A DNA stretch of 59,758 bases, the filler included, from Sluysia triapertura (lineage: Eukaryota), in assembly GCA_046118255.1 (NCBI GenBank). It is 5 parts of 5 records of this genome, joined end to end, with 100 filler letters (N's around TTAATTAATTAA, not from the genome) between each part and the next. Parts side by side here need not be neighbours in the genome. Positions count along the whole stretch, not along the records: positions 48,694 to 59,758 come from JBJNIA010189441.1; 4 more parts are not named here. One strand, 5' to 3'. Below, one piece after another: positions 11,386 to 59,111 of the stretch; within the stretch, counting starts at the first letter, position 1; the number at the start of each line of letters is the position of its first letter. The notes under the pieces are model-generated. The model saw only the letters and a list, made by a program, of their open reading frames with translations. It did not search any database and was not told the origin of the DNA. A program made the translations under genes and the position numbers.

Positions 11386-11485
11386 NNNNNNNNNNNNNNN
11401 NNNNNNNNNNNNNNNNNNNNNNNNNNNNNTTAATTAATTAANNNNNNNNNNNNNNNNNNNNNNNNNNNNNNNNNNNNNNNNNNNN
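11386..11485. other. Artificial contig spacer (N + TTAATTAATTAA + N)
   Basis: 100-nt spacer with six-frame stop linker. Confidence 0.97.
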
Positions 11486-11646
11486 GATGTTTATGTTTGA
11501 AAGATGTTGTTGTGAGTATTGTTGTTTTATGTGATGAATTGTGTGGTGATTGTAGTTGCGGATTATGGTTGTGATGAATTTTACTTTAATGAAATTGTTT
11601 TAATGAAATTACATTTTAAACTTAAATTAATGGGTTGGCCACTACA
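11486..11646 (-). mobile_element. 5' end of LTR-like repeat (same family), truncated by the gap
   Basis: Minus strand starts TGTAGTGGCCAACCC and continues AC-rich. Confidence 0.55.
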
Positions 11647-15379: not shown

Positions 15380-20786
<5,407 letters not shown>

Positions 20787-35431: not shown

Positions 35432-36664
35432 CTAACCACACCAATTACGAAACATTTCTTCGAGAAAAACTTCAATGAAAGTTATCTGAGATTTTGGTAT
35501 ATCGCATGTTTGTCGATTGAAATGTGGCATCACCACAAGAAGACCTTTCGCTATCTCTTCATCTGTCTGTGCAAAATATTCTTCCGTAATTCGTTTTGCC
35601 CATTCAATGCATAATCCAAACGGTCGAGTGGGATTATTGACATCGCTACATTTGACAAGCATTCGTCGTATAATACATTTATTTTCTGGAATTCTCAAAT
35701 TCAATGGTTCGTCACTAGGAATATCTTGAAAATTTCGATCTGTTACTCGCATTATATTATGCAAAAATTTTGTCAAATGTTCAAGATGTTTAGCCATTTC
35801 TGTAGCTAAAACTGCATCAATTATACTATGACGTAATGATGTATAGTCATCTCGGTTTAAATTTTTAAAAATATTTATTCTATCGTCCTTCAAAGTAAGC
35901 TTGAAAGCAAATGAAGAATGATGGTTTTCAAGAACAGCTATATCATTGTACATAACAGCTAAGTTATGACTACTGTTAATAAGAAATGGATTAGTTTTAT
36001 CGGCCACACTTGGGTAAGCAATTACATCTTTAACACCTTCTGTAACACGACTCATTTCAATATATATTTCTTCTTTGGTTTTATTCTTTGGTATTCCACC
36101 AACAAATAGACGACAGTTGTCAACACTTAAACAAACACCTAATGGTTTTTCTGGACGTATTTCATAATTATTTAATTCTGCTACAGCACGTTTGGTATCT
36201 TCTCGATTCATATAAATGCAAAATCCATAACCTCGATTTGTGCCTGTAAAATCCATCATTAAACGAAACATATAAATTGGACCGATTTTTTCAAACACCG
36301 GTACTAATTCATCTTCGAAACAATCCCGTGGTATTTTACCAATAAATACCTCACAGCCACGTTGAGGTGAATCACCGCACCATTCAGGCGGTGGTCCGTA
36401 TCGTCTTTGACCATTCTCTTGTACTATTGGATACATTGTACGGTTTAATAACTTAACTAATGCTTCTGCTGATGACATAACAGCAGCATTTTGGTTATCT
36501 TGCTTACATAAACTATCGTTCTGTTCACTATCATTCTTCATTTTATCACCTTGAGCATTACTATTACTGCTATTAATTACTTTATTAGTGTTACATGGAA
36601 CAGATGAAATCAATGGCAAATTTTGATACAAAGACACACACGAATTATTCACTTGTTTTGACAT
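35432..36664 (-). CDS. Chimeric ORF: RBM47/RBM46/A1CF-type RRM1 plus half RRM2 fused to the C-terminal half of a PDE8-type phosphodiesterase catalytic domain
   Basis: [58 protein letters not shown], then [63 protein letters not shown] probable GT donor lies at the 3' end (TGTG|GTTAGT). Confidence 0.9.
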
Positions 36665-37545
36665 TTCGTACTAATTTATTTTAAAATTATAATTTTCAAT
36701 TTCTGTAAACATACAATCAAAAAGTATAAATGCGAAATGTTCTTTTTATTTAATGTAATTTCAATTTGATTTGACTCAAATATAAGTTTAATTCTATAGA
36801 TAAAAATAATTAATTCATAATATAAATGATACAAATATTACTCTTAGGTTTTGGGTCCAAAGTTTACTAGATGTGACAATTTCAAAATTGAATATTGACC
36901 TAGTATATCGATCTTTTATTATGTAATATTTTTTATTTAATTATACTTAATTAATTCGCTATAGCAATGAATAAATTAATGAAAATAATATATTTTTGTT
37001 ACGAAAAAATAGAAAAGAATAACTTAATATTATTTTAAAAACCCTTAATTAATTTATTTAAATATGTGTAATGCTAAACGAAATTAGAAAATTATTTTAT
37101 TTTATGTTTATTTTATCTTTGCATCATAACACTTTTACAGTGTGAAACTTCAGTCTTAAAATTAATTGAACTAAGAATGAAAATTTTAAATTAATTTTAT
37201 TCTTTTCATTAATTTTAAAAATAAATCATTTTAATTAATTGTTATTCTAATTAAAAATAATTTAATACTAAGTTCTATTTGTGTATAGTTTTAAGATTTT
37301 ACGTTTTATCCTTAAATTATTACATGTTGCTTTTGTTAGACTGACTTAAAAGAATTTATAAACTCGATATCCCAACAAAAGTCCTAATTATATGTATAAC
37401 TTAATTTAATTTTTAATTTCTTACAACTTTAAATAGAAAATGCTTCAGTAATAATGTTAAACTTAAATTATATAAATTATTTCATTTTCAGTTCACTTAA
37501 TTTCACTTTTATTAAATCATTTGTTAGGATGTTATTCCTTAATGA

Positions 37546-43200: not shown

Positions 43201-43214
43201 TTCAATGAGTATAA

Positions 43215-44088
43215 TACCAGTGACTGGAAACTTTGGAGGCTTCCAATTTTTTATTTCCGGTCTTCCAATTATTTCCAATTATTTCCGGTCTTCCTAATAA
43301 TTTAAACGCTTCAAATTGATATATTTGCAATCGATCATGTTGAATTCGTTTTTTAATTTCCAACATAATGAAGTCATCTTGTAAATTCTTTAATGTCACA
43401 TTTGAATCACGTTTATTCAATAAATAACGCATTATAAATAAGTCATTATTACTTAACTTAACATGTTTGAGAATAATTTTTACTTCTTTTTTATTTTCAA
43501 TAATTAATCGTAAAAAATAGCACTTCGAACATCATTTTTCTGCAATTTTTGATAAAACTCACAAAATCGTTTTTCCTCAGTTTCAAAATAATCTTTTCCT
43601 AAACCAACGTAAGGAAATAAATTTACTTCAAACTTTCGCTTCAATATATCACGTGCATGTCTACCTTTAATAACTTTACTCACTTCTGCCCAAACACGTT
43701 CACCAGTAATAATTTTTACACCATCGACTTTTTGTTTAATATTAGATGAAGTTCCTTCAACTTGTGAATCGGATTGTTCCGGAATTCTTTCAAAATATCT
43801 AAAATATCGTAAAATTCTTAAATAATCTTCTTGAATTCGATTAACACTGTTTCAAACAAAACGGATAATATTACTTTCTAAATCTTTAGTGCCACCAAAT
43901 TGATCATAAATAAAATCATCTTCATCTAAAATTAAAGAGTTAATAATTAAATCACGTCTTTCGACATCTATTTTCCAATCTTTTGTAAATTAAACTTGTG
44001 CTCTGTGGCCATAGGTTGCAACATCAACTCGTAGAGTAGTCATTTCAAAATTTTCATTATCATCAATTCTTGGGCTTATTGTAGCGTG
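43215..44088 (-). pseudogene. TRNT1: CCA tRNA nucleotidyltransferase fragment, intronless, disrupted
   Basis: [51 protein letters not shown]...YDQFGG...RIQEDYLRILRYFRY...ITGERVWAE...WKPPKFPVTG. Contains a stop and frameshifts, and lacks the N-terminal catalytic DxD motif. Confidence 0.9.
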
Positions 44089-46728: not shown

Positions 46729-48593
46729 TTATATTTCTGGGGTAGTTATTAACGTTATTTGAATGTTATTGTATTTGGATTTTTGCCCATTTATTTTAAA
46801 ACTATTTATAGACCAGTTAGGTTGTATATAACGCTCCTGAGTAAGTTGAGGTTTAGTAGATCCGTTTTTAGTATTTGAATGATAATAACTTACATTGTTA
46901 ACTGGTCTTGGAGGTATGGGTGAGGTAGTGGTAAACCCATAACCCAAAATTTTATTATTTTTAGGTGTTATAGTTGTCCAGGCAAAAGATGTAGTATTTG
47001 ATTTAAATGAATTTTGAATTTTACTATTATGATAGAGTTTATTGTTTATTTTAGTAGGTGGAGTTGATGTTGTATAATTTGTCTATTGTTTAGTGGTGTT
47101 ATTATGTGTATAAATATTCATTGCTTGATTAAACTTTTGTGGGTGTTCATGATTATGGGATGTATTAATGGGATAATGTGATGTTTTATGTTTGAAGAAT
47201 TGTTTATCTTTTGTATTGTGTAATGAAGTTTGTAATGTGTTTTGTTTTGTTTGTTTCGAGTTATTTTTGTAAAGATGTTTTGAAGATCTGGTGTGATTGT
47301 GAAAATTAATTACATGGTTTTGTTTATTGTTTATGTTAGATAATAGAAATTGTATTGTAATATCTTTTGTTGGTTTAGGGTTGTGATTTATTGTATGTGT
47401 ATCATTTTTTGTATTACGTGGTTGTTTTGATGAATGTGCAGTCTTGTTGTGTAGTATTTCTTGTGTTGGATGCTTGTTGTTTATTTCGGATAGTGTAGAT
47501 GTTTTATTTATGGGTTGAATGATGGTGTTATTGTTTGGACTGATGTTATTATTGTTTTTGTTTTCATAAGGTGCTTGATTTATGGTGGATTTATTGATGT
47601 TACTTAAGTGTATATGGTTCTCTTGTATTTTCTTTAGTTTCTTCTTTGTTTACTCAGTTTTGACTTATGTAAAAGAATAACGTATAAAAATTTATTTTGT
47701 AATCGGAGAATGACATGCTTATTCTTTAATTTTATAGGGCGATCTATATTTATGTTATTAAAATTGTTATAAGTTTCAATAAAATAATTAATGTTATACA
47801 CTTTAAGGAATTCATTACCTTGAATATTTGAATATGAAAGTTCTTTAACGGTCTCATCACTGGAGGCATAAAGAATACTGTTGAAATTATTATCATCATA
47901 TTTATGCGTATATCTTTCAGTGATGAGATCGTCATAATGACAAAAATTTTTTGATAAAACATACATAAACAAACAAACTTGGATCCATGAAACGTGGCGA
48001 CACAGATTTAAGAATGATAATGTTTTGCGATATAATTTATTATTAGTTGGTTGAGTACAGGATGATACGTACTTGGTCTTCAAAGATAGAGGATTAAAAC
48101 ATAAGTCTATGTTTAAGATGTGTATCAAAGTTGAGGGCGTAATATTAGTTTCAATAAAATAATAAGTATCAAATAGAAATTTAAAGAGTGAAAGTATATA
48201 TGAAGAATCGACCTTGCAGTTGTAAGGCTTGATTCTTGATATTTTAACAGTTAATATATTGTTTTCTTGACTTATAATATTATTCGAAATTAATATTGAA
48301 TTTTTATTTAATTTACAACAATAGAGATGATTGTTAATATAATAATTCAAGTTTACTGGATCTTTCAACTTAATGATTTTCAAGTATTTATTACTTAAGG
48401 TTTCAATATTAATCTTAAAGTTAGTTTTATTTACTAAAAATCTAATATTCGTATAAAATTCAATTAAACAACAATTGTGAAAATTTATTACATTTAACAA
48501 AATCTTATTCAAATTAAAAAGTTTATGAAGGTTTTTCCATCTGGCCGACCAACGTTTCGATGTCCAATCTGTAATTGACCTAACTAAAGAATA
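46729..48593 (-). pseudogene. Long orphan ORF with N/T/H/K-rich C-terminal half, interrupted, 5'-truncated by the gap
   Basis: ORF 47634-48512 is open to the contig end and continues through two frameshifts and one stop into ORF 46729-46947. Confidence 0.5.
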
Positions 48594-48693
48594 NNNNNNN
48601 NNNNNNNNNNNNNNNNNNNNNNNNNNNNNNNNNNNNNTTAATTAATTAANNNNNNNNNNNNNNNNNNNNNNNNNNNNNNNNNNNNNNNNNNNN
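48594..48693. other. Artificial contig spacer
   Basis: N + TTAATTAATTAA + N. Confidence 0.97.
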
Positions 48694-48708
48694 GAGAGGG
48701 GGGTTGTA

Positions 48709-48753
<45 letters not shown>

Positions 48754-48760
48754 ACTATAT
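48694..48760 (+). mobile_element. Polypurine tract plus TG LTR start, then (TA)n
   Basis: GAGAGGGGGG-T-TGTAGG followed by a (TA)20 tract at 48711-48750. Confidence 0.45.
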
Positions 48761-49086
48761 AAGTCAATATAGACTATATAAGTTAATAATTAATAGACAA
48801 ATTAGTAAAGGAATAGATAAGGAAAAATTTAAAATAATTTTAGCGTATGTCATATACCAATGTAATAAAAAGTGGCTGATTACAAAAAAACAGAATAGAT
48901 AAAGTTATAGATTTTGTTAATAAGAAAACTAGATTATGGGCAGAAGAACAAGCAGGTTGGAGAAATATAATAAAAGGAAAAGAAATCAGAAAGCAGAAGA
49001 GCCGATTAATTTAATTACGCAACTATTCGGCAATAATGACAACATTAAATACAGCCATACAAAGAATAAGGAACTCGTCAAATAAT

Positions 49087-50900
49087 ATGTTATTTATTAT
49101 AACATTACTAGCTATCTTTGATATGAATAAGACTAATGGAATAAAAGCATTTGATTGGAGAGCTGCAAAATTTTCTTTATTGGTCACAGAAGATTTACCT
49201 GAGTCAAGGCCAAGTCGAATACAAATAAAAGATACCAAAGTAATGAATGTTTACCAAGAGGGAAATTTAGTGACAACTTTAATGGGAAAATGTATGGTAA
49301 AACGATTAATTGCAATTTGGTATTGTGACTACCACAGCTAATCGTCTATAATAGAATTATCTAATGTACTCAAGCCATTTAAAATATTATCTAAACAATG
49401 TAGGAATAACAGATATTTAGTTTAAACAAAGGGGATAAGCTAAAAATATGTAATAACGAAAAAATAATTTACATTAGAACCGCAGGTAAGGTATTAATAG
49501 ACAGAACTTGCGTACAGAAAACAAAAGGAAAATTTACCATAATGTTATCGCACAAGAAACATTTGTAGTAAGTCTACAATCGCTTAATGAGAGTTTCGAA
49601 ATGGAAAATGGCACAATGATGTCACAATCACATTGTAAAAGCGATCAAACTATTTGTGACACAAGAAAATCGATATTAATTTATGAGCTGGACAAATTTC
49701 ACTGTCCACTGATATTTTTAAAGAAACAATTTAATGTGGTAGCCGGATTCATATATCAAGATAAAGATGAATATTCAATACAGGAAATAAGCAAAAATTA
49801 GTTAAGCAGAGAGAATATTGATAATATGCAAAGAAAAAGATTAGATGAAGTTGAAACACCAACAATATTAATGGCAAGAAGAGAGGAAGATGACTTAATT
49901 TTTATCTCAAAAGGAACAATAATTCTTTGCGAAAAGGAAATAACGGAAACAAACCATCAAGGAACCTATTTGTCTGAAAAAACAGTACAACAAGCTGAAA
50001 AATGAGTAGACGCAAAAAATGTAAAATTAAACACCTATTTTAACAATAAAATTGATTTTTACTACCATCTAGGTTTAATATCATTAGAAAAGATTTATCA
50101 AATTATGGTTACCTGTGATTGTCAAATAAATAAAGAAATTACGGACAAAATTAGCAGTAGTTATTACAAACCCGGATTTAGTTGCATCATTACTTCCATT
50201 AGATGAAAGAGTTTTTGGCCGACTAATTGGAGAGGTATTATATATTTACAAGAGTAAAAAAAGTAGAAGTGCAATTAAGGTCAAATACTGAATGTACAAA
50301 TGAATTACCTATATTATATAGTAAAATGGAAATAAATTTAGAACCGATAGCTAGAGTAATTTTTCCGAACAGCAAAGTTAAACCACAACTAATACATTGT
50401 TCTAATGCACCAGAATACAGAATAGATGGATATCGTTACCACATATGAGTCAAGTGAAAACTCCAGAAATTATAGGACTAAACGAATTAAAAGGAAAATT
50501 GAAATTTCTAGCTACAAAAAATAACCAAATTCCGGTATTTACAAAAATGATGACATTCAAGCGAATTGGCGGAAGATATTATTCCCAATAAAAGGATCAA
50601 AAAAGTTAGCAGAAATTGTACACAAGGCAAATGTTGAAAAGAACGGACAAGTGATTTCGAATTTCTATTAGGACCTGATCACTTTAAAAGAGCCGCACAA
50701 TATACACTTAAACATTAATATTAGGTCAGCGTTTTCTGCATTATTAGGAATCTATATAATAATTAAAGTAATTGCGCCGATAATTTCTCAAGCATTATCG
50801 GTAATTGGAATTTATAAAATTTCATTGTTTACATGGAAACTAATAATCGGATGTTTTCCATTTTTAGCGAAACATCTCTTGATTCATCATGAAAATGTGC
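49087..50900 (+). pseudogene. Chuvirus (Jingchuvirales)-type class III fusion glycoprotein, disrupted
   Basis: Signal peptide MLFIITLLAIF, then IKAFDW, KCMVKRLIAIWYCDYHS, TYFNNKIDFYY, LEKIYQIMVTCDCQINKEI, NPDLVASLL, GRLIGEVLYI, VEVQLRSNTECTNELPI, LEPIARVI, and a C-terminal TM region FSALLGIYIIIKVIAPIISQALSVIGIY. These follow chuvirus G motif order as I recall it. Several stops and frameshifts. Confidence 0.75.
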
Positions 50901-51099
50901 AAATAAATGCATTATGAAAGGAGAGACAACGGACAGGAGAAAAACAACAAATAGAAAATATAACTCTACAATCATTACAAAATAATGATAATGAAAAAAT
51001 TATTGAAAATCAAATAAATAGAGAGAGCCAGAAGAAAGGAATGTATCCTATCACTCCAACGTCACCACCGCAAGTTGTGCGAAAAACAATTGAAACAGC

Positions 51100-51471
51100 T
51101 CGAAAAGCCCGATGGTAAATATCAGAATAAATGGCAGAATGGTCTCAGTATTAATAGATACAGGAGTGAAGGCGTCTCTGATTAACGAAAATTTCTTAAC
51201 TAAAGCAGAAATAAAAAACCTTGTCAACCACACATCTCATATATCAGGAGTTACAGATGATGCAATTAATGTAATCGGTGTAATGAAAGCTACATTTGAA
51301 GTAGGACAAAATAAGTTAGAAATTAAATTAAGAGTCATGAAAAAATGTCCTAAGGAAATGATAATGGGAATGAATATATTGTCACAATTAAAAGTAATTA
51401 CATTAGATTTTGATCAAGTAAAGATAGTCGATCAAAAAGAACTATTGATGATGATGATGATGTATATGTAG
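51100..51471 (+). mobile_element. Retroviral-type aspartic protease
   Basis: VNIRINGRMVSVLIDTGVKASLI ... MIMGMNIL (DTG active site, ILG.D-like motif). Confidence 0.9.
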
Positions 51472-51799
51472 AAGAACCACTTTAGTTATTAAAAAGAAGT
51501 GAATATTTAATGCCAGATAAAACCAATAGTCTACTGACTGGCAGCATTATGTTTATTGCATCAGAGATTAATCAAGAAAAGTGGGTTATAGGAATAGCGA
51601 TTGCAATATGTAATAATTATGAAGTAATAATTATGTCCGCATTATAAATTATACAAACGATAACACATGGCTTTATACCGGTACTAAGTTAGGAAAAATC
51701 TTCAAGTATAAGATAACTGCACATATAATATTATAATGGAAGATAAAAATAAGACAGGAAACAAAAATAAGATTTATATAAAATTACAGCGTGAAATAC

Positions 51800-52455
51800 A
51801 ATATGAAGATTACGGAGAAATCGAAATAACCAATAAAAATCTAAAGAAAAAACAAATAGATCAGTTATATAATGTTATTTATCCTTATCCAAGAGCAGTA
51901 GCTAAAACAAATAGACATTGGAGATTCAGTAATAATTAAACGCGAAATACCATTAAAAATAGACAAAGTGATTTGTAAAAATCCATATAGAATACACGTA
52001 TGTAATCAAAAGGAAATGCAAGATCAAATAGATACTATGAAAAAGGCCGAAGTGATAAGGCCAAGTTTCTCTCCATTTTTATCTCCAGTTTTATTAGTCA
52101 AAAAGAAAGACGGCACAATCAGATTTTGGATAGATTTTAGGGAATTAAATAAAATAACAAGAAAAGATACATTCCCTTTACCAAGAATAGACGAACTGAT
52201 AGATAAGTTAGGAAACGCCATACATTTTATAACTCTTGATTTACTTATTGGCAGATAGAAATTGCATTCGTATTTCGTATTATCAGGATGTAAAAATGTT
52301 ATGGTGTTAATTGATGATATAATATTTTCTAAGGACTTTGACACACGTAAAGGATATTGACTATATTTTAAATAGATTAGAAATAGCTAGTTTGAAAATC
52401 AAACCTACCAAGTGTGTTTGGGCTGAGAAAGTCGAATTTTAGGAATACATTGTAT
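51800..52455 (+). mobile_element. Ty3/gypsy reverse transcriptase, internally deleted pseudogene
   Basis: PYRI...VIRPSFSPFLSPVLLVKKKDGTIRFWIDFRELNKIT.KDTFPLPRIDELIDKL...FITLDL. The PFGL block is missing; then VMVLIDDII and LKIKPTKC. No RNase H or integrase follows. Confidence 0.92.
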
Positions 52456-52699
52456 GAAATCATTTCGAAATTATCTTTATTAAAAAATTAGTTCAACTAC
52501 ATAAAGGAAGATATATTTATATACTTTTATTTGTTGATAAAGCATTAGTATGAAATATACAACAATTAATATGAACAATGCAAATACTGATGCAAATGTT
52601 TACGTAGAGATAGCAGAAGTACCAATTCCAAATTGTTTTTTCTGATTAATTATCATGGAATTCATTCCCATAATCCCAGATCGAATGGCTCCTGCAGGT

Positions 52700-53268
52700 C
52701 CATTATCTGTCAGAAGTACATGAATAGCACGTTTCTGAATTTCTACATTTTTTTGTTATTTCAAGTTTTTTTCGAGTTTCAACGGAAATATTCACTAAAT
52801 AAATACCCCAAGCCAAGCTCCAAAACCAACCAACCAAAAATTAACACATAATGTTGAACCTGGATGATTATTTTTGTAATTTGAGTTACTTTCCTAATTC
52901 GTTTCCTTTGAGAAAATATTGATTATTAAATTAATAAATCCACTCGTAATTGTCCCAAGCCCAGGTACTAAAATATTTAGTATCAAGCAAATGATGGCTG
53001 CTGGTAGTGGTATATTAGGTATCTTGTGGTAAATGTAAGAATTAGTTCCTGAAGGCACTTTATTACGACTAATAGATGTTGACTCATTTAAAGATTCTGG
53101 ATTAGTGTTATTATTTCCATCACAATCATCACCCTTCTTTTGTTCATTATACGAATGCATAGAAAATGAACCTCGGTAGTCAGATAATTCAAATGAATCT
53201 GTTGATATTTGACTTCTTGTTGAAACTCTTCTAGATTCCATAAATGTACTGGTAACAAAATCAAACAA
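52700..53268 (-). pseudogene. stum: stum/SPEC3-family membrane protein pseudogene
   Basis: IPNIPLPAAIICLILNILVPGLGTITSG, in-frame TAG at 52894-52896, then LCVNFW and, in another frame, VGWFWSLAWGIYLV. Confidence 0.8.
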
Positions 53269-53291
53269 AAATTTTGAATGAAGTTTCTCTT

Positions 53292-54520
53292 GTTAGGTTG
53301 TCATCACAACTCTCTAAAATCATTAAATTTCATTAAAAAATCATTTATCACTTATCTCATCGATTTTTCGGAAATAGTTAATGTCACTATGTTTATCAAG
53401 AATTTTAAATTATTAGAGAAATTGTTCACTATGTTAATGACATTAGTAATAATTGTACAAACATTCGTATGAGTATTATTAGACGTGTCAGTGATATCAC
53501 AACTCGTGAATCGTATAATATTTGCACAGAACTTATGCCTAAAGTATCCAAGCGTGATTCAACAGAATTTTATTTATCCAAAAATAAAATCGAAGTTAAT
53601 TCTAATAAAATTAAATTTACAGATTGCTCATAGTTTCAAGATCAAGACATAACGGCGTGGAATTCGCGAGTTTTTCTTTTGTTGAGTCTTTATGTAACTT
53701 AAATTTTCATTTTTATTTAGATGATGACTCCAGGGTGAAGCCAAATGATGTACGTGGAGATATAGCAATAAAATTTAAACTTTTTGTTCTAATACGAAAT
53801 ACAAAAATTATAGTTGCTAACGTCTTGATAATTTATTTCTTTGATTTGATCATCATCAAACTACGCAAAAGTTTTAAACATATTATTTATAACGAAATTA
53901 GACTCAATAATACAAATAAAGTTTATATAAATTTTGATTTCAAGATTAAAAGATCTATTAATCAACTAAAATTTTCTAAGCTAAATTCAATAGTTTATAT
54001 ACAAACATTGTTAAATTGGTATCATTTAAAGATAACCTTTCAAATATTACTAGATCGGCGTCAGATAACCTAAAACCCCTAAAATTATTAATATAATTAT
54101 TATTAATATTATTATTATTATTATCATTATTATTAACACCTTTTAACGAAACTTTAATAACTTTCAATTATTCAAAATAATATATTTACGTACTTTTCCT
54201 TCTGGGTATGTATGTTTGTGTATGTAATATTCAATAAGCACAGAAAGTGATCAATAAAATCATCTTGAGATCATCTCCTACATTCTACTTCAAGATTTCC
54301 GACGTTTTTCAGCACTTCATAATTTTCTTTCGTATATCTGGAATAAGCCAACTGCTAAAGTAACGTACAGAAGGATTGCTAAATTAATCTTGAAATCTAT
54401 TAGTGATGCACTGTTTAAAGACTAAATAAAGTGTATAATAAAGTACAACAAATTCATTACACAACATTTTAGTGAAACAATCAAATTATCTGTTAGTTTG
54501 TCATCACAACCCTCTAAAAT
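53292..54520 (+). repeat. Pair of ~30-bp direct repeats 1.2 kb apart
   Basis: GTTAGGTTGTCATCACAACTCTCTAAAATC (53292) vs GTTAGTTTGTCATCACAACCCTCTAAAATC (54492). Confidence 0.7.
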
Positions 54521-58359: not shown

Positions 58360-59111
58360 CCGAGTATACGAACTTGATCCAAACCTTTTTTATTTAAAAT
58401 TTCTACCATAGGTTTATATAGAAAAATAGATACTGGATTTATATAATGCGACACATTTGTCATAGTTTTCTTTAAGTCTTGAGCTTTTTTATTTGGTTCT
58501 AAAGTTTCTTTCAAACACAAAATACACATAAATAAGTAAAAGTAGCTAAAACACTGAATAAAGCAACATTATTGGCAGATTTTAGTAGCAAAACATCGAT
58601 CGATGGGCAAGACCATAAGCAACTCCAATCCATACCAAACCCACTGAATGTGTCTCTGCAGTATAAACATCACCCACAGTTGCAACAGCAATAGCAGAAT
58701 TTGCACGTGCAACCCCGATAAGGGCACGCATTATCAGAAATACTGTGAATGATGTAGTTGTTTTTGTATTTGGATACAAGTAATTAGCACTCCAAATCAA
58801 GTAACTCAGCAATGTACAAATATTTGTAAACATCATTTTTCTTCCGAAGTAATCTGACAAAGCACCAAAAATAGGTGAACACAAAAATTGCATAAAGCAT
58901 AATACAGAACTTAAAATACTGCCTAACAATACATAGATAATCCAATTAATTGTACTGAATGATTCAAAAACTGCTTTGCACCAACATAAAATTTGTCAAT
59001 TAAATTTCTCTTAAAACCATCTATAATTTCCGGATAAAGTGGTAAAACGGACGAGAAAGCCATTATATCAATGAGTAAGTAAATAAATAATATGAAAAAA
59101 TTTTGCCTCAT
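58360..59111 (-). pseudogene. MFSD10: MFSD10/tetracycline-transporter-like MFS pseudogene
   Basis: LLIDIMAFSSVLPLYP, MQFLCSPIFGALSDYFGRK, RALIGVARANSAIAVATVGDV, LKETL. Frameshifts and internal deletions; intronless. Confidence 0.8.

Follow-up and report, generated by a model that had tools for sequence, protein, structure and literature searches.

The window, i.e., the whole 59,758-nucleotide stretch of DNA that was analysed, contains on its plus strand a dead 3.7-kb internal fragment of a Ty3/gypsy retrotransposon, in which the remnant of a putative Bcl-2-like domain is followed by a predicted class III fusion glycoprotein (env, or G), an aspartic protease (PR) and part of a reverse transcriptase (RT). 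We consider it about 87% probable that this description is correct and that the family likely has the Burro-like gag-env-pol layout that is already published, in a host that is likely a flatworm. The fragment is likely one more dead member of a class of enveloped Ty3/gypsy elements that has already been described and not a new capture, as an earlier note on this DNA had proposed when it placed a chuvirus-type glycoprotein in the gag position of a Metaviridae lineage.

The glycoprotein is encoded at 49087-50917 and is assigned to the chuvirus/HSV-gB type by Pfam matches, homologs, and the model of a relative. Six pieces of it were translated with X at stops, and three of these match PF24664 (Monjiviricetes_fusion) in order: 49087-49431, 50254-50445, and 50576-51115 correspond to profile positions 7-112, 384-424, and 542-651, respectively (E 2e-4, 1e-4, and 4e-7). 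An exhaustive search with the long middle piece against 1.84 billion proteins gave 40 at E 0.001 or better, while a word-index search with the same piece gave no matches. PF24664 is present in all 18 of these 40 homologs that were scanned. A hydrophobic segment resembling a signal peptide is found at the start of env (49087-49140); it occupies the same place in the relatives, where it sits inside the polyprotein and not at its N-terminus, and cleavage would be expected here. A second hydrophobic region lies near the C-terminus, at about 50720-50870.

The structure was modelled with AlphaFold for the intact relative P0128 and not for the window copy (pLDDT 72, pTM 0.47). Its best match among viral models is a chuvirus/chu-like G, that of Tacheng tick virus 4 (E 4.7e-38, 22% identity), while among the solved structures herpesvirus gB is matched at E 1.3e-12 with low TM-scores. 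The identity of G is about 17-22% to viral G and 9-13% to gB, and a search of the ESM Atlas with its N-terminus returned only low-recognition unnamed fungal clusters. Because of the PF24664 matches and the matches of the P0128 model, G is predicted to be a class III fusogen of the chuvirus/gB type, and the reading of a chuvirus-type fusion glycoprotein with a C-terminal TM region is upheld. It shares the PF24664 family and, judged by the relative's model, the fold with the G proteins of chuviruses, xinmoviruses and qinviruses and with herpesvirus gB, but differs from the viral class III fusogens, to which its identity is low, in being embedded in a retroelement polyprotein.

Judged by the spacing between the TM and DTG landmarks in the relatives, the stretch that follows (50918-51093, plus strand) would be the cytoplasmic tail of env and a linker to the protease, and it holds no gag remnant. 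The protease is of the retropepsin type (51094-51438, plus strand; PF13975 E 8.6e-11 with the piece 51094-51471, PF00077 E 2.8e-9) with its DTG at 51157. Between it and the RT is a spacer (51414-51912, plus strand) homologous to that of the relatives, as found with a profile from six of them (E 2e-4 and 1e-3). This spacer occupies the place of the dUTPase-like region of Burro; it gives no Pfam match to dUTPase. Only the N-terminal part of the RT is present (51914-52454, plus strand). It was located by tblastn against the relatives, with whose RTs it shares about 52% identity over 113 aa (E down to 1e-36), whereas no window piece matches Pfam RVT_1. About 38 codons are missing internally, near 52260-52280, and the domain is cut off at about 52454; neither RNase H (RH), integrase (IN) nor a 3' LTR was found in the window copy. 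A profile of the relatives' RTs has Ty3 Gag-Pol as its best PDB match (E 1e-69), and among the matches listed for the relatives there are no BEL/Pao-type Pfam families, RVT_1, RT_RNaseH, and Integrase_H2C2 being present instead. By its predicted RT type the element is classified as Ty3/gypsy (Metaviridae). The DTG protease after G and the Ty3/gypsy RT after the protease had both been recognised earlier, correctly so. When it comes to the congruence of RT and G, six relatives give a Spearman coefficient of 0.46 (p 0.35), and the seven-row trees of both proteins are mostly unresolved.

Twenty relatives, 18 G homologs and two cluster members, were scanned for gene order. In 11 of them G and a protease downstream of it share an ORF, six display the run G-PR-RT-RH, and in none (0/20) does the RT precede G. 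Single-ORF env-PR-RT-RH-IN polyproteins are found among them; PR-RT-RH-IN is complete in P0127, P0131, P0143, P0165, and P0167, while the window sequence stops inside the RT. P0167 is 4,844 aa long and carries ankyrin repeats. Between the TM landmark and the first DTG there are 95-338 residues in 11 of the 12 relatives examined and about 99 codons in the window. A CCHC motif is never found between TM and DTG (0/11) and is found upstream of env in four; counting either CCHC or Retrotrans_gag, a gag marker precedes G in P0125, P0131, P0133, P0134, and P0161, in the form of a zinc knuckle in P0133 and a Retrotrans_gag match in P0161. Neither CCHC nor capsid was found between G and PR in the window, as the first reading of the sequence had stated. 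Since the relatives have a similar env-PR spacing, no intervening CCHC and gag upstream, gag seems to have been neither replaced nor deleted between G and PR. By comparison with these sequences the G-PR-RT order is judged to be native to the element, and the place of gag is judged to be upstream of env. The proposed linkage of G to PR-RT as a native feature, and not the outcome of nested insertion or misassembly, is thus retained, while the notion that G has taken the position of gag is not, as the relatives have gag upstream of env.

The copy itself is dead and makes nothing. Its homologous segments contain about 13 frame changes and about ten stops, of which about six frame changes and several stops lie within G, so that decay, together with the loss of the 38 RT codons, has gone far beyond what was first described. 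The frame change at the G-PR junction had been left as either programmed or decay. Since G and PR are in the same frame in the relatives, and since the copy has about 13 frame changes in all, along with about ten stops, it is read as decay, and that half of the suggestion stands; a programmed frameshift was considered and rejected because of the same in-frame relatives and the same number of frame changes. The sole slippery-like heptamer found, at 50994, lies in A-rich DNA and precedes the junction by about 100 bases.

The family to which the copy belongs is well represented in its host. Abundance was assessed from the contigs of one sequencing run containing the stretch, which is possibly that of the source sample, at an identity of 80% or more, and 5,328 contigs of that run align at this threshold. 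Summed contig depth, which is no copy number, ranges from 472 to 195,526 across 25 bins of the element, the Bcl-2-like part included, vs. 33-46 in five flank bins, and it falls to flank level after 52550. This shows that the element belongs to a large, diverged and very abundant family in the host.

Upstream of env, the stretch 48756-48978 (plus strand) matches a profile made from the pre-env segments of four relatives and corresponds to the C-terminal half of a putative Bcl-2-like domain, from the BH1- to the BH2-like part. A single frame change near 48870 interrupts it, and the first ~55 positions of the profile are absent from the window. The profile scores 22.5 bits here, which is the top of 59,448 X-joined control joins, and the best X-joined score outside the locus is 12.1 bits. 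As the frame change splits the domain, the same profile is not significant against plain six-frame chunks of the window; neither does Pfam match the window's Bcl-2-like pieces alone. In the four relatives the pre-env segments all match Pfam Bcl-2 (4/4, best E 2.1e-5), with member 1 under the curated cut-off, and the profile of the four has Bcl-xL as its best PDB match (E 8e-4). A model of the relatives' domain (pLDDT 77.6, pTM 0.78) was compared with known structures by Foldseek, and all 42 matches listed belong to the Bcl-2 family with TM-scores up to 0.69; the best E is 1.9e-3, none reaching 0.001 or better. A search of the ESM Atlas with a relative's domain gave no usable match. Pfam, PDB profile and predicted fold, each of them weakly, point to a Bcl-2-like domain. 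A BH2-like motif is found shortly before the env signal peptide in four of 14 relatives; it is missing in the other ten, some of which start close to env.

The earlier note placed an LTR-like start about 380 bp upstream of G. Since 48756-48978 matches the pre-env domain of the relatives, most of this supposed LTR appears to be coding remnant, and only 48694-48754 is left of it. That short stretch, on the plus strand and directly after the scaffold gap at 48594-48693, consists of a polypurine run, TG, a TA microsatellite, and TGTCA at the contig edge. It lies outside the read-depth coverage, and neither a partner repeat for it nor an LTR pair was found in the window. A polypurine tract precedes the 3' LTR of an element and not the 5' LTR, and 48694-48754 may be where a 3' LTR, of this or another element, begins, joined across the microsatellite.

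Burro (GYPSM1) is described as a giant Ty3/gypsy element of 25-30 kb from Schmidtea mediterranea and Dugesia/Girardia tigrina (Arkhipova and Yushenova, 2019, PMC6431247, whose Burro passage is also the source used here for Grohme 2018 and Jurka 2007). According to that passage its order is gag, accessory domains, BCL2-like, env, PR, dUTPase-like, RT, RH and IN, with MATH, BIR, ankyrin and SUMO-like accessory domains and a Burro1 ORF1 of 4,873 aa that carries ankyrin repeats; the env, which has matches to mononegavirus fusion glycoproteins, is flanked by gag and pol and in frame with them, and decayed fragments are known in Dugesia japonica (PMC6431247). The gene order that the earlier note regarded as new had thus been published in 2019, with env directly after a BCL2 motif and in frame with the gag before it and the pol after it. 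The present element shares with the published description the order BCL2-like, env, PR, spacer, RT, with the BCL2-like motif immediately before env in both, as well as high abundance, decayed fragments and, likely, a flatworm host. Env and pol form one polyprotein in Burro; here they share one ORF in 11 relatives and are broken in the window copy. It differs in that only a 3.7-kb dead fragment is at hand, which is likened to Burro by description and not by sequence, and in that the dUTPase-like label given to the Burro spacer is without Pfam support here.

A survey of such elements (Chary and Hayashi, 2026, PMC13524379) describes "ancient errantiviruses" of the GAG-ENV-POL order with a gB-type env in Platyhelminthes, Nematoda, and Bryozoa. 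Nine intact flatworm elements of this kind come from three free-living species, of Macrostomum, Prostheceraeus, and Schmidtea. The same source reports an ENV-GAG-POL order in two mites and 114 arthropod gypsy elements whose glycoproteins are homologs of the chuvirus-like G found in BEL/Pao elements of mosquitoes. As that survey covered both GAG-ENV-POL elements and gypsy pol with a chuvirus-like G next to it, the claim of a new, independent capture is not supported. The window element resembles these errantiviruses in its Ty3/gypsy pol, its gB-type class III env directly before pol and its likely flatworm host, but while their flatworm members are intact the window copy is broken. A nematode metavirus (2022 study) is likewise reported to have an RNA virus-type glycoprotein ahead of pol in other hosts, i.e., nematodes, and Anakin (Dezordi et al., bioRxiv 10.1101/2020.02.15.950899) also has a chuvirus-type glycoprotein in an LTR retrotransposon, but it belongs to the Belpaoviridae (BEL/Pao) of mosquitoes, whereas here env precedes a Ty3/gypsy pol. 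The main text of PMC13524379 contains no occurrence of Bcl-2, and a literature search for work devoted to Bcl-2 in elements of this kind yielded only the Burro passage in PMC6431247.

By analogy, intact members of the family would work like Burro or a GAG-ENV-POL errantivirus. Membrane topology and retroelement biology suggest that one long ORF, comprising gag, accessory domains including the Bcl-2-like one, env and pol, is translated, and that the internal signal peptide threads env into the ER. Cleavage by signal peptidase would free Gag and the accessory part, and the C-terminal TM region would stop transfer so that Pol is cytosolic and remains tethered to the tail of env up to its release by the protease. 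The result would be enveloped particles that use class III fusion to get into adjacent cells, and apoptosis in the cell that makes them would be dampened by the Bcl-2-like domain. In the window copy, gag and the LTRs would either have been lost or be hidden in the scaffold gap.

Three other readings of the fragment were weighed. The idea that a metavirus captured a chuvirus G independently in this lineage and placed it where gag normally sits fits with the lack of gag in the window and with the chuvirus/chu-like G being matched by the relative's model well ahead of herpes gB, and several origins are possible since the GAG-ENV-POL elements are not monophyletic according to the survey (PMC13524379). 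It is nevertheless highly unlikely, as the closest G homologs with enough sequence are all found inside retroelement polyproteins of the same order and are 29-36% identical vs. about 22% for the viruses; moreover, these relatives have gag upstream of env and the layout is already in print. A chance join of an env tail and a protease through deletion between tandem gag-pol-env elements, nested insertion or misassembly has hardly any likelihood left. The frame change at the junction, a summed depth that reaches its minimum for the element (472) in the junction bin, and a fragmented assembly with four gaps would agree with it, and none of the eight contig pieces listed (5,479 more matched) bridges the junction; against this, env and PR are joined in one ORF with similar spacing in eleven relatives, and P0165, P0127, and P0167 are each colinear with the window across G, PR, spacer and RT. 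The comparison with the relatives largely refutes this reading.

The last alternative is a non-autonomous derivative without gag, whose LTR is followed immediately by a truncated Bcl-2-like domain, env and pol and whose packaging would take place in trans. A polypurine run, TG, and a stretch ending in CA do directly precede the coding remnant, whose first ~55 profile positions are missing, but the two are joined by a TA microsatellite at the edge of a contig, where misjoins classically occur, and the polypurine tract marks a 3' LTR. There is also neither a primer-binding site nor a second LTR to be found in the window, and the copy is heavily decayed. This makes such a derivative very improbable, and there is equally little chance that 48694-48754 represents a genuine LTR with the truncated domain directly attached to it and that the abundant family as a whole is gag-less and env-first. 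If it were so, other elements would make the capsids, and these would receive Pol and a chuvirus-type fusogen from the family. Under the preferred reading, that of a decayed internal fragment from a Burro-like gag-env-pol family, the additions are small: structural support for a Bcl-2 fold of the pre-env domain, for which the Burro passage (PMC6431247) gives a motif only, and the very high abundance of the family in this host.

The window is AT-rich eukaryotic DNA with a GC content of about 16-32% per kb, and it is interrupted by the four scaffold gaps; no tRNA gene was found in it. A DDX5-type helicase (19594-20703) has its best named matches in Schistosoma, Paragonimus, Opisthorchis, Protopolystoma, and Mesocestoides, and those of an RRM protein (35432-36670) are cestodes, trematodes, and monogeneans. 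Since the best named matches of both host genes are flatworm proteins, the host of the element is likely a flatworm. In trees, both genes are placed with modest support close to the named neodermatan clades but outside them. In 30 of 55 flatworm rows of the survey, ENV-POL env matches number 5-253 in five free-living genomes and 0-1 in 25 neodermatan rows (PMC13524379); because of the latter figure, a neodermatan host would mean a range extension. On the other side of the element, the end of the RT at 52454 is separated by about 90 bases from an adjacent Spec3/stum-type host gene, which is encoded on the minus strand at 52540-53292, outside the element (PF15795 E 1.4e-9), and has further exon-like frames.

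A single aspartic protease is seen in the window, in the decayed Ty3/gypsy fragment at 48694..52455, while several such domains are found in relatives identified through homology to its chuvirus/gB-type env (G). The polyproteins P0125, P0127, P0130, P0165, and P0167 (ENA records) each have more than one aspartic-protease domain, P0167 displaying the highest number with up to six such stretches, and some of the extra domains in the relatives are located C-terminal to the integrase region. The polyproteins P0127, P0131, P0143, and P0165 extend several hundred residues beyond the integrase. This extension contains additional hydrophobic stretches resembling a second signal peptide and TM, and judged from these sequence features it could possibly constitute a second surface protein. 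P0131 (HBK71150.1), a gB-env Ty3/gypsy polyprotein, is labeled in its record as originating from a Flavobacteriaceae MAG, but the contig encoding it is most likely a eukaryotic one that ended up in a bacterial genome during binning.

A single open frame of 412 codons is found on the minus strand at 35432-36670 (PF00076, PF00233). It encodes an A1CF/RBM46-type RRM region followed immediately by a phosphodiesterase catalytic domain. Among the 120 best homologs listed for this frame, none reached a coverage above 63% and none contained the PDE family domain. Possible explanations for the combination are an assembly join, retrocopying, and a genuine fusion. Two further host genes are represented on the minus strand, by a poly(A) polymerase/CCA-adding-type fragment (43202-43851, PF12627) and by an MFS transporter exon (58582-58995, PF07690).

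Pfam matches were absent for three other minus-strand open frames. One, of 466 codons (15380-16780), lies downstream of the DDX5-type helicase gene and contains internal repeats of about 19 residues with a 57-base spacing. The other two, of 188 and 117 codons (46729-47649), are rich in N, K, T, and H and show a strong strand skew; this region is possibly a decayed repeat.

The gaps at 11386, 23360, 37616, and 48594 each consist of 44 N, a 12-base spacer, and another 44 N, a pattern that is an assembly marker and not biology. A GT-rich stretch similar to 46729-47649 follows a gap, at 11486.
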